From the IMG/VR virus record IMGVR_UViG_2526164632_000031: DNA of 18,314 nt, one strand, 5' to 3'. This DNA comes from a virus. Lineage: Duplodnaviria > Heunggongvirae > Uroviricota > Caudoviricetes. A model generated the notes under the pieces. It saw only the letters and a program-made list of their open reading frames with translations, ran no database searches and was not told the DNA's origin. Each line of letters opens with the position of its first letter. The stretch's first letter is position 1. Position numbers and translations under genes: made by a program. This document shows, one piece after another, positions 6,788-9,590 of this stretch.

Positions 6788-7534
6788 TTACTTCGCAATT
6801 CCTGGCTGGACGACATTCGGACGCCAGCTCTCCCAGTTAAAATTCACCCAACACCCGCCGTTCATGGTCATGCGATCCATAATCCTCTCGCCGAGCAATG
6901 TTTTCATGGCCTCATAGTTCAGGTTTGTCAGCATTCCCACGCTACGCATCGACGCTGTCCGTCGATCAATAATCTGGTGCAGTACCACCTGCTCGTTTTT
7001 CGTCTCGCGCTGAATGCCAATTTCATCAAGAACCAGCAGATCCACTTCGCACAGCTCCCGCAAAAATTTTTCGCCTGACTGCCCGTCGTCATAGCTGGCG
7101 TGCAGGGCGCTCATAACATCAGCCACGGTAACCACAATCACTGTCTGACCGTCTTTCAGCAGGCGATTCCCGATAGCTGCCGCTAAGTGATTCTTCCCGG
7201 TACCAGGTTTTCCGCTGAACGCAAAATTTGTACACCCGGTCATCAGTTCATCGGCGATGGATTTCGCCTGGCTTAACGCGTATCGCTGCCCTTCGTTCTG
7301 CACCTGGTAATTCGCAAACGAGCATTTGCGGTGCAACGGCTGGATGCCAGAGCGATTCAGGATTTTTTCCACCCGCAACTGACGATTCAGGCGGTTGATC
7401 TCCTCGCAACGTTTCTGGCCTTCAGCAAGTTGCCACTCGCGCCACTCCGCAACCGTTCTGAATGGGGCGGTTACATGTGGTGGGGTCAGTCTGCGGATAC
7501 GCTCCAGAACGCCGCCTGTCGCAATATTTTTCAT
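6788..7534 (-). CDS. DnaC-like replicative helicase loader (IstB-type AAA+ ATPase, YdaV-like)
   Basis: 248 aa; Walker [14 protein letters not shown] and Walker B LLVLDEIG; position downstream of O-like gene. Confidence 0.9.
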
Positions 7535-7540
7535 GGTCTG

Positions 7541-8335
7541 TTACCCCCTGAAGCCTGGCGGGATCGCACTGTCCGGCAACGAGACGGTGTTAACCTGTCG
7601 GAGCAACGTCTCAGGCCGAACACCTTTCGGTGCGAACAAGCCCTGGTATTCATTGGCGATGCTGTGTCGAATCACCTGCTCAGGTGTAAAACCCTGCTGA
7701 CGGAATTTTTCCAGTTCCCGTATCGCCCCGTTAGCGCCCTGCTCCGTTCGAATCGGTTTTCGCAATGCCTGTCTGAACCGGACCCACTCATGCCAGAGTG
7801 TTTCCGGCAACCAATCAGGCAGCTCAATAGCCTCCGGCTCGAATTTTTTAGACGCTCGTTTTTGGCGAGGGGGATTTAGGGGGAGATCAGTATTTAGATC
7901 TTCCTCTTCCTCTTCCTCTTCCTCTGGTAACGCTTTTTGATCCGTTTGTGTAACGCTGGCAGCGTTACCTTTTCGTTTCAGTTCGCGTATTTTTGTAACT
8001 CGCTCGTTTGTAACCGCCCGTTTTTTAGAGCTTTTTCCGTTATGACGTTCAAAGTTAGGTAGAGAAAGCCCAACGTCATTTTCGACCAGCCATCCAACCT
8101 GAATTAACGCATCAGCAAAACCAGCCATAAAAGTGATGCGATCTATTGCACTTTTTGTAACGCCGCGAGCGTTACAATCTGCATTACCGTCTATCATTTG
8201 TTGATCCGCCCATGCCCAGAAGCGAATAACCTTCCCTAATGCGGCATCTGGATCAATATTCAGAATCTCAGCAAGCCTGAATATTTCCGGCTTATCCGGC
8301 GTAATAACCTCGAGCTTTATCCAGTTTGAAGCCAT
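7541..8335 (-). CDS. Phage replication initiation protein (lambda O-like / YdaU-like) with poly-Glu linker
   Basis: 264 aa; lies directly upstream of the DnaC-like gene; contains palindromic iteron-like repeats within its coding sequence and an EEEEEEEE linker. Confidence 0.7.
   Translation of the reverse strand: MASNWIKLEVITPDKPEIFRLAEILNIDPDAALGKVIRFWAWADQQMIDGNADCNARGVTKSAIDRITFMAGFADALIQVGWLVENDVGLSLPNFERHNGKSSKKRAVTNERVTKIRELKRKGNAASVTQTDQKALPEEEEEEEEDLNTDLPLNPPRQKRASKKFEPEAIELPDWLPETLWHEWVRFRQALRKPIRTEQGANGAIRELEKFRQQGFTPEQVIRHSIANEYQGLFAPKGVRPETLLRQVNTVSLPDSAIPPGFRG
7901..7924. repeat. Hexanucleotide tandem repeat (TTCCTC)x4 encoding a poly-Glu run
   Basis: Four perfect tandem copies read directly in the sequence; encodes the EEEEEEEE stretch on the minus strand. 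Confidence 0.9.
7949..7969. repeat. Palindromic iteron-like site TGTAACGCT-GGC-AGCGTTAC (copy 1), with TTGTAAC half-sites nearby at 7994-8000 and 8008-8014
   Basis: Read directly; near-perfect 9+3+9 dyad. Confidence 0.8.
8165..8185. repeat. Palindromic iteron-like site TGTAACGC-CGCGA-GCGTTACA (copy 2)
   Basis: Read directly; 8-bp arms with 5-bp spacer. Confidence 0.8.
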
Positions 8336-8347
8336 TTGTTTTCACCT

Positions 8348-8368
8348 TGTAACGCTCGCAGCGTTACA
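8348..8368. repeat. Palindromic iteron-like site TGTAACGCT-CGC-AGCGTTACA (copy 3) in the intergenic region upstream of the O-like gene
   Basis: Read directly; perfect 9+3+9 dyad. Confidence 0.85.
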
Positions 8369-8412
8369 TTTAACTGATACCGAACAAAACAATCCGGCAC
8401 GATTAATTTCAA

Positions 8413-8835
8413 TCAATGCACTACGACAGAATCGCCGGGCGACCCACCACCGCTGAAATGTGCTTTCCGGTAAACGGCCTGGACTGCATCATCATGCGCA
8501 TCAATTGCCGTACTCAACGCTTCCTGCGCCGCCAGTAATGCACGGCGTTCCAGGGTATCGAAGATGCAGAGTCGGTGACGCAGCTCGCGCGGAAGAATTG
8601 CCAGAACCGCAGGGATCAGTTTCTGAATTTTTTCCCTTTGCGCTTTCGTTTCACCTTTCAACCAACGGTGATAGATATTCTGCTGATTGTTCCAGTCCTT
8701 GCCTGGTACAAGGGGCAATTCGCCGCCCCCCTGGCGCAGATATTCTTCAGTAATTGCGTTAGCGACCCACGCCTGCCCTTTTTCGGCTGCCAGGGCTAAC
8801 AACACTGATTCGATGTGCTCATGCCTGATTTTCAT
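8413..8835 (-). CDS. YdaT-like protein (CII-position gene of Rac-type immunity region)
   Basis: 140 aa, start overlaps the cro-like stop (ATGA); same size and position as Rac YdaT. Confidence 0.6.
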   Translation of the reverse strand: MKIRHEHIESVLLALAAEKGQAWVANAITEEYLRQGGGELPLVPGKDWNNQQNIYHRWLKGETKAQREKIQKLIPAVLAILPRELRHRLCIFDTLERRALLAAQEALSTAIDAHDDAVQAVYRKAHFSGGGSPGDSVVVH

Positions 8836-9074
8836 GAATCAACCGCTCCTATGCTGTTTTCGCTATGCTTACCGTCTGGGGGGAATACATCGTCAAGTCC
8901 ACAATGAGTGCCAAGCCGATTAAGGGTAGAAACAATTTTTCTGCACTCCTCTAGTCCAGGGGTACGAAAATTTGCTTCGTAATTTGCCAGTCGGCTTTGT
9001 ATCCACCCTAACTGAACAGCAAGTTGTCTTTGAGACAGCCCAAGCTGTTTTCGATATGTTGAAATTTTGTTCAT
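8832..9074 (-). CDS. Cro-like HTH regulator (XRE family; YdaS position)
   Basis: 80 aa; HTH LGLSQRQLAVQLGWIQSRLANYE; strong GGAGG RBS; divergent from the repressor gene. Confidence 0.8.
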   Translation of the reverse strand: MNKISTYRKQLGLSQRQLAVQLGWIQSRLANYEANFRTPGLEECRKIVSTLNRLGTHCGLDDVFPPDGKHSENSIGAVDS

Positions 9075-9170
9075 TGAAAACCTCCGATGACAATTTTAAA
9101 CACACCTTGTGTTATATGGTCAAGCTGTTTTGTGTTTTATATAAATCACGATTCGTGATACAAGGATGCA
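9075..9170. promoter_or_regulatory. Divergent promoter/operator region of the immunity switch
   Basis: 96-bp intergenic region between divergent HTH genes; perfect dyad ATCACGA-T-TCGTGAT at 9145-9159 and direct repeats TTGTGTT(T)TATAT at 9107-9117 and 9129-9142. Confidence 0.6.
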
Positions 9171-9590
9171 ATGGAAAAAGAAAACGAAAAAATTGCCGCT
9201 AGTAGGCTCAATGACAAAATTGCAATGCGTCTTAAAGAGCGCAGGCAGAAGCTTGGTTTATCTCAAGGAAAACTTGCTGAAATCTGCGGATGGACGCAAT
9301 CGCGTATAGGTAACTATGAGGCGGGCAGCAGAAATGTTGGAGTGCATGACGCTGTCGTATTGGGAAAGGCACTTGGCATATCTCCTCCTGAGCTCCTATT
9401 TGGAGAACAGGAATCTTCTGAATTGTGGTTAAATGAATCCCAACGAAAACTTCTTGAGTTGTTTAACCAGCTACCGGGCTCAGAACAACAACGAATGATT
9501 GAGCTATTTGAAGTCCGGCTAAAAGAAATCGATGAGTATGTAGAAAAATATTTGAGAGGCAGGCTTAAAGATAATCCCCCACCGGAGTAA
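9171..9590 (+). CDS. CI-like prophage repressor (XRE-family HTH; RacR position)
   Basis: 139 aa; HTH LGLSQGKLAEICGWTQSRIGNYE; AAGGA RBS; followed by an intrinsic terminator. Confidence 0.8.
   Translation: MEKENEKIAASRLNDKIAMRLKERRQKLGLSQGKLAEICGWTQSRIGNYEAGSRNVGVHDAVVLGKALGISPPELLFGEQESSELWLNESQRKLLELFNQLPGSEQQRMIELFEVRLKEIDEYVEKYLRGRLKDNPPPE

Follow-up and report, generated by a model that had tools for sequence, protein, structure and literature searches.

Palindrome clusters and a polypurine tract within the initiator gene of an Escherichia coli Rac-like prophage, a probable replication origin

Palindromes and purine tract at the initiator gene

The stretch of DNA studied here (IMG/VR record IMGVR_UViG_2526164632_000031; 18,314 nucleotides (nt), hereafter the window) represents an Escherichia coli Rac-like prophage, and its positions 7400-9200 are 100% identical to strain FDAARGOS_1059. 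It carries a gene for a replication initiator protein which is directly followed by ydaV, the gene of a DnaC-like helicase loader, as is looked for in a lambda-type origin. Three palindromes, flanking half-sites and a polypurine tract are located in the 5' half of the initiator gene and just upstream of it, and together they probably represent the cis-acting replication origin of this prophage. In the direction of the gene the features are:

8349-8367, no strand: palindrome of site 3, GTAACGC-TCGCA-GCGTTAC, in the intergenic region between ydaT and the initiator gene
7541-8335, minus strand: open reading frame (ORF) of the replication initiator, 264 amino acids (aa)
8181-8187, minus strand: degenerate left half-site GTAATGC (coding strand), additional to site 1 and 12 nt upstream of it
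8157-8175, no strand: palindrome of site 1, in the coding sequence of the N-domain; encodes C-N-A-R-G-V-T in the loop aa 47-60
7993-8014, minus strand: two weak half-sites (GTTACA), encoding V-T in 'RAVTNERVTK'
7950-7968, no strand: palindrome of site 2, GTAACGCTG-G-CAGCGTTAC, in the coding sequence of the interdomain linker; encodes G-N-A-A-S-V-T
7926-7934, minus strand: outer right half-site AGCGTTACC (coding strand), encoding A-L-P, the last before the purine tract
7899-7925, minus strand: 27-nt polypurine tract AGAGGAAGAGGAAGAGGAAGAGGAAGA (coding strand), encoding a run of eight Glu; candidate unwinding or helicase-entry element

The palindrome GTAACGC-N5-GCGTTAC (GTAACGCNNNNNGCGTTAC) is present in three exact copies, as a first-pass annotation of this DNA had claimed, and further copies are absent from the 18.3-kb window even if two mismatches are allowed. 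By chance 0.03 copies would be expected, and none of 200 shuffled sequences reaches three. Including the outer T/A the copies become 21-mers at 7949-7969 (with C and not A as the final base), 8156-8176 and 8348-8368. The first-pass annotation had the first and third of these coordinates right but placed the second 9 nt too high (8165-8185). Its assignment of two copies to the coding sequence and one to the region before the start agrees with the ORF given above, the third palindrome being located in the 77 bp that separate the start codon from the ydaT stop (8413). Here site 3, whose start is 32 nt before the ATG, directly adjoins the Shine-Dalgarno sequence AAGGTG. The distances between the clusters are 192 and 207 bp. 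Each cluster comprises one full palindrome and one or two half-sites, and not an array of at least four tandem iterons spaced by about 20 bp.

The degenerate half-site at 8181-8187 corresponds to a four-codon insertion ('DGNA DCNA'), and Enterobacterales homologues possess a perfect second TAACG at this position in a 12-nt register. The cluster of site 2 (7926-7968) falls in the segment encoding the disordered linker aa 123-162. Its outer half-site GGTAACGCT (7926-7934), which was missed in the first-pass annotation, is better than the pair at 7994-8014 that had been described there as extra TTGTAAC half-sites. This pair does exist (TGTAAC at 7994-7999 and 8009-8014) but is weak; one of the two positions reads CGTTAC in several Enterobacterales, and outside this order none was seen by eye, without counting. 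The conserved extra half-site is thus the one at 7926-7934.

The polypurine tract follows directly. On the plus strand it appears as (TTCCTC)x4 at 7901-7924 inside a 27-nt pyrimidine run and encodes PEEEEEEEED with eight Glu, so that the cluster indeed abuts the hexanucleotide repeat in the way the first-pass annotation had noted. A pair of GATC (Dam) sites (7885-7888 and 7897-7900, 12 nt apart) lies directly downstream of the tract. It marks the point where similarity to the Rac prophage of E. coli K-12 resumes (module junction), and the same pair is present in K-12.

Along its entire length the initiator matches PHROG 2509 ('replication initiation protein'; residues 1-264 versus profile positions 1-277, E 1e-90). 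A Pfam search found no family at E <= 0.01, including that of lambda O (Phage_rep_O), and PHROG 678 ('O-like') matches only aa 101-238. The earlier label 'O-like' fits only the role and the position of the gene. In an AlphaFold2 model (predicted local distance difference test score 65 for the whole protein and above 85 for the N-domain core), aa ~10-92 form a helical N-domain with a beta-hairpin and aa 103-119 a basic helix, followed by a disordered linker (123-162) and a helical C-domain (178-248). Fold searches gave only weak, generic winged-helix matches, and initiator structures of the RepA_N type were found among insignificant Foldseek hits only. The N-domain family is large; at E <= 1e-10 it includes the representatives of 3,748 clusters formed at 50% identity. 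Both intragenic sites map to protein segments modelled with low confidence, namely the loop aa 47-60 and the linker, and the loop at site 1 tolerates 12-nt insertions, each of which adds a half-site.

Some prophages carry truncated or fused initiators (210, 212-224 or 376-378 aa), and in P0017 and P0060 the N-domain is fused to DUF1627. Loci of Shigella flexneri (L088) and E. coli ECMA0423 (L089) encode initiators of variant length and retain all three palindromes.

Conservation in distant and close relatives

Scanning one genome per species yielded 80 loci with 42-72% aa identity and two with 99%, from Enterobacterales, Pseudomonas, Burkholderiales, Planctomycetota and Verrucomicrobiota including Akkermansia. 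For positional counts 72 distinct loci (232 kb) were searched for the core motif TAACGC-N5-GCGTTA with at most one mismatch. It occurs at +100 to +199 from the start codon in 60 of the 72 loci (site 1), at +300 to +399 in 59 (site 2) and at -100 to -1 in ten, and nowhere else in these loci. The identified carriers of the upstream copy are Enterobacterales, with exact copies at -32 to -44. A histogram of half-sites agrees with these positions. The distance between sites 1 and 2 varies from 189 to 245 bp in the family, with modes of 207 and 219 but no clear helical phasing. Per cluster there are two to four half-sites (TAACG / CGTTA), which keep a register of 11-12 nt and are usually ordered → → ← ←.

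The codons used within the intragenic sites are highly uniform compared to the background codon usage:

Site 1, Gly as GGT: 45/46, background 26%
Site 1, Asn as AAC: 46/46, background 68%
Site 1, Ala as GCT: 38/46, background 22%
Site 1, Val as GTT: 44/46, background 32%
Site 2, Asn as AAC: 46/46, background 60%
Site 2, Val as GTT: 46/46, background 29%
Outer half-site, Ala-Leu as GCG TTA: 42/43, background for TTA 10%

In addition, the linker palindrome is found in two codon phases across lineages. Judged from these synonymous positions, which are conserved across phyla, the palindromes are under strong selection at the DNA level.

The same holds for the polypurine tract. The last half-site of the linker cluster, in the window GCG TTA CC at 7926-7934, is followed by the tract. 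In 36 of 72 homologous loci a tract of the type (GAAGAG)n or (GAGGAA)n sets in 2-3 nt behind the last CGTTA, and in 46 of 72 no other purine or pyrimidine run within the ~3.3-kb locus is as long. Depending on the lineage the tract is translated as EEEEEE, EKRRE or REEKRRE, and of its 70 Arg codons 67 are AGA, as compared to 7% elsewhere in the same genes. From the homologues, then, the (GAGGAA)4 run of the window is itself a conserved DNA element, and we regard the poly-Glu run as the imprint of a DNA signal and not merely as a slippery linker.

A special case is Pantoea sp. BAV 3049 (L098), where the upstream cluster is an exact duplicate, about 40 nt long, of the intragenic site-1 cluster; the copies lie ~55 to 15 nt upstream of the start and at ~+145 to +185. 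The sequence of this locus shows a possible route by which the third site could have originated.

An unbiased alignment of close relatives comprised 66 unique sequences, from IMG/VR loci, two close genome loci and the window itself. Within the intragenic arms all eight third positions of codons are invariant. Variable columns amount to 9 of 15 in the spacers versus 20 of 123 third positions elsewhere (16%). The Glu run comprises 3, 4, 5, 6, 8, 12 or 14 residues among 80 near-identical IMG/VR prophages, and in five E. coli and phage relatives, all of which keep the three palindromes, it differs by 6 or 12 nt. The comparison of homologous prophages proposed with the first-pass annotation thus gave arms that are fixed at third-codon positions, and a Glu run that varies between strains as had been supposed.

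The 5-nt spacers (7957-7961, 8164-8168, 8356-8360) are hypervariable, with at least eight variants at site 2. This could be due to a mutational hotspot (hairpin loop) or to a plain lack of constraint. A 'loop inversion' at site 2 (spacer TGCCA versus TGGCA) was considered and dropped, because the spacers differ only in the single central base of the 9+1+9 palindrome, which makes inversion and point substitution indistinguishable.

The prophage type is widespread: about 1,500 of 5,426 complete E. coli genomes match the query region at least in part, and 631 match it over at least 80%. The genes surrounding the initiator gene are:

9171-9590, plus strand: DicA-like repressor
8832-9074, minus strand: Cro-like helix-turn-helix gene
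8413-8835, minus strand: ydaT
6788-7534, minus strand: ydaV, DnaC-like helicase loader (Pfam IstB_IS21 1e-19; NCBIfam PRK12377 3.5e-153; PHROG 50)
after ydaV, minus strand: DUF1627 gene

RecE/RecT and an integrase are encoded elsewhere in the window. A gene for an IS21-type IstB ATPase at its left end (105-887, Pfam E 8e-112) points to an insertion of a mobile element in or beside the prophage.

The Rac prophage of K-12 offers a natural comparison. Its ydaT and ydaV are ~90% identical at the DNA level, and its YdaU shares 81% identity with the C-terminal residues 141-264 (124 residues) of the window initiator. The N-terminal 140 residues are unrelated; BLASTP aligns aa 141-264 only, so over its N-domain the window protein does not belong to the K-12 YdaU family. 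The GTAACGC palindrome was not found in K-12 Rac. Instead, K-12 ydaU contains five copies of TTSAACAYC (TTSAACAYCWG), three in the linker and two in the coding sequence of the N-domain. In the Rac prophage of E. coli DH1 (L001) these repeats are located at 2056-2112, 2260-2271 and 2345-2356, and they are candidate iterons of oriJ, arranged in parallel to the sites of the window. The repeats thus go together with the N-terminal module, like the O/ori modules of classical lambdoid phages.

The footprint published for the YdaT protein of Rac is ATGATT-N6-AATCAA (PMC11879457). In the window the known box occurs at the start of ydaT (8825-8842). A second sequence, ACGATT-AATTTC-AATCAA at 8399-8416, has one mismatch to the Rac box, overlaps the ydaT stop and lies ~30 bp upstream of palindrome 3; K-12 Rac is devoid of this downstream copy. 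Judged from this box, YdaT may regulate the expression of the initiator.

The likely binder, competing explanations and the proposed origin

In four lineages the palindrome has another sequence, which in three of them is found at both intragenic sites (positions from the start codon):

Phage Raharianne (L170): GTAGACG-N6-CGTCTAC, +153 and +368
L124: GTTGCGCTC-C-GAGCGCAAC, +145 and +334
L161: GTCACGC / GCGTGAC, +154 and +370
L123: GTCACGC-N5-GCGTGAC, +148 only; a perfect copy at site 2 was not found

The peptides encoded at the same places differ in the switched lineages (e.g. VDGxAST or GCAPSAT). Switching is accompanied by changes in the initiator at residues 109 and 113, two positions on the same face of the basic helix: all 61 genes of the TAACG type have T/S and V there, and the four genes with other palindromes have G/K, A/K, A/M and K/Q. 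The initiator gene is also the only gene common to all loci, as the downstream partner may be DnaC-like, lambda-P-like, DnaB, DUF3268 or DUF1064. The module swap relative to K-12 Rac and the covariation of residues 109/113 with the half-site sequence indirectly support the initiator as the binder. Since one arm sequence is kept at all positions and in all phyla, recognition would be by sequence and not by hairpin shape.

Even if the initiator binds the palindromes, they might act as operators for autoregulation only, as a roadblock or for repression of the initiator/loader operon, with the real origin elsewhere. Initiator binding would be equally compatible with this explanation. The Rep proteins of iteron plasmids autorepress via inverted repeats, and site 3 is placed directly upstream of the Shine-Dalgarno sequence and the start codon. 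We nevertheless consider a purely autoregulatory role unlikely. The upstream site is missing outside the Enterobacterales, and the conserved part consists of the intragenic clusters and the purine tract. Moreover, a simple consensus scan detected no sigma-70-like promoter over site 3 (8336-8412), no other cluster of the GTAACGC motif exists in the 18-kb window, and the layout parallels the proven ori of lambda. That the palindromes are operators of another regulator of the immunity region (YdaT/CII-like, Cro-like, or the DicA-like repressor) or of a host factor is very unlikely, although they lie just downstream of the immunity genes with the YdaT-box-like sequence nearby. YdaT was rejected as the binder; its published box does not resemble GTAACGC, and the palindromes are all missing from K-12 Rac despite its near-identical ydaT. 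In other hosts, which span several phyla, the sites persist despite completely different flanking genes, and the lineage-specific switches track residues of the initiator.

An effect at the RNA level, with mRNA hairpins acting in stability, processing, translational pausing or control of the start region, is highly improbable. A hairpin of site 3 is predicted in the leader, where its stem ends 1 nt before the Shine-Dalgarno sequence, and the 96-nt region folds with z = -3.1. However, all sites within a genome and across phyla share one arm sequence, both sites change in concert without independent compensatory changes, the extra unpaired half-sites are conserved in their 11-12-nt register, and Rfam gave no relevant match. 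A function as intrinsic terminator was rejected as well; only site 2 on the plus (antisense) strand is terminator-like, one case as compared to 1.4 expected. Finally, the peptide repeat GNAxxVT is conserved at two positions of the protein, from which one might suppose that the palindromes are a coincidence or a by-product of a peptide needed by the protein. This is almost certainly wrong. Codon bias falls far short of explaining the fixed synonymous positions, two reading frames are used for the linker copy, lineages with other palindromes encode, for example, VDGxAST or GCAPSAT at the same places, and the protein model has low confidence at both sites, one in a loop and the other in the linker. 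It is, conversely, the DNA signals that are translated into the poly-Glu linker and the 'conserved' GNAxxVT peptides.

Several points weigh against an origin at this place. The searchable literature gave no description of this origin or initiator family, and the phage records that were opened annotate no origin or iterons at the initiator genes. Some Rac prophages have been reported to be replication-defective (PMC11014345). Single palindromes or small clusters ~200 bp apart are unlike the four tandem iterons of lambda, and a strongly AT-rich unwinding element was not found nearby: the lowest GC content over 40 nt is 35% (8020-8059), and that of the purine tract is ~45%. The covariation of residues 109/113 rests on three to four independent lineages. 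Furthermore, the loci were retrieved by two peptide patterns, one of which included 'GN', and the amino-acid conservation at site 1 is therefore partly due to ascertainment; codon choice and site 2 are unaffected by this. Taken together, the conservation at synonymous sites, the module swap and the covariation are comparative evidence in favour of the origin that the first-pass annotation had proposed, and we regard it as the probable function of the element.

In the proposed mechanism, dimers or tetramers of the initiator would bind the half-sites in their 11-12-bp register through the winged-helix N-domain and the basic helix. Clusters ~190-230 bp apart would then be bridged into a nucleoprotein complex like the O-some of lambda, and the resulting strain could open neighbouring DNA, either the polypurine tract (7899-7925) or the 35% GC stretch (8020-8059). 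The C-terminal domain, which is common to K-12 YdaU, would recruit the DnaC-like YdaV together with DnaB. Site 3, next to the Shine-Dalgarno sequence, might serve as a third site of the origin, for autoregulation, or for both purposes. A more far-reaching idea, which we consider speculative and rather unlikely to be correct, is that the conserved tract 2-3 nt past the last half-site is the opening or priming element of an undescribed class of origins spanning phyla. Transcription of the initiator gene would produce a purine-rich RNA forming an unusually stable R-loop beside the initiator complex, from which the single strand, or a primer, needed to load the helicase would come; the low-complexity linker of the protein, whether acidic or basic, would be a mere translation of the tract.

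If the proposed function is correct, the element is a concrete origin candidate for a very common prophage type of E. coli and Shigella, and for an initiator family of thousands of members that has no Pfam match here and for which none is annotated in the opened records. It would also be an example of overlapping codes, where G50, N51, A52, V59, T60, the A-L-P motif and the poly-Glu/EEKRRE linker are fixed by needs of the DNA and not by protein function. This calls for caution when functions are deduced from apparently invariant residues. The specificity variants TAACGC, TCACGC, TTGCGC, TAGACG and TCCGC, together with the changes at residues 109/113, suggest a simple recognition code, which could be exploited for the design of orthogonal origins in phages or plasmids. 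With its variable length the purine tract provides a built-in polymorphic marker, and it may tune origin function.

Comparison with known replication systems

The closest functional parallel is ori/O of phage lambda, as proposed in the first-pass annotation. In both cases the initiator gene itself harbours the actual or probable origin, at the part that codes for the flexible linker between the domains, and the actual or putative binding sites are ~19 bp long with dyad symmetry. The annotated ori of lambda consists of iterons followed by the purine-rich ACAAAAGAAAAAAGAAAAGA (coding strand) within the O linker, and likewise the site-2 cluster of the window, located in the segment for the disordered linker, is followed by the purine tract. 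The specificity of lambda O for its origin resides in the N-terminal half, and its C-terminal half is the partner of the helicase loader from the adjacent gene; this division, and the recombination of N- and C-modules between phages, are mirrored by the window and K-12 Rac. There are also clear differences. The N-domain of the window has no detectable homology to that of lambda O (no Pfam hit). Instead of four tandem iterons there are two to three clusters ~190-230 bp apart, one of them in the coding sequence of the DNA-binding domain and one upstream of the gene. The tract is a (GAR)n polypurine sequence whereas that of lambda is A+T-rich, and the loader is of the DnaC type and not P.

The system ydaU-ydaV/oriJ of K-12 Rac belongs to the same prophage type, with the gene order repressor, Cro-like gene, ydaT, initiator and ydaV, the similar C-terminal initiator domain, and its own repeats in the linker and N-domain coding sequences. 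It differs in the N-domain (K-12 YdaU family), in the junction between ydaT and the initiator gene, and in the repeats.

By protein similarity the initiator is best compared to the PHROG 2509 or epsilon15-type proteins, often annotated as 'primosomal protein I', which it matches over the full length. Among its phage relatives are those of TL-2011b, Xanthomonas CP2 and Pseudomonas PAN70, with epsilon15 being more distant. Bipartite half-site clusters recur in this group, but more distant members use other half-sites (TCCGC, TAGACG). The initiator genes of epsilon15 and phiPSA1 each contain two clusters of TCCGC/GCGGA half-sites in an 11-nt register and the order → → ← ←, and in phiPSA1 the second cluster is followed by CCAGAGAAGAGA. 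From the sequences this looks like the same bipartite design with another specificity. The clusters are located at 1254-1305 and 1533-1573 in epsilon15 (L168) and at 1245-1306 and 1555-1595 in phiPSA1 (L171), at 33% identity.

Iteron plasmids such as pPS10, F and R6K were compared as well. The window lacks tandem direct iterons of 17-22 bp, the consensus scan detected no promoter over the upstream palindrome, the initiator shows no significant similarity to Rep proteins, and the sites are inside coding sequence. Common to both are an initiator of the winged-helix type, half-sites in direct and inverted arrangement, and an inverted repeat near the gene start as a possible autoregulatory site. 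Overall, the sequence comparisons argue for an element that would work like ori/O of lambda, yet with an initiator outside the protein families of lambda O and K-12 YdaU.

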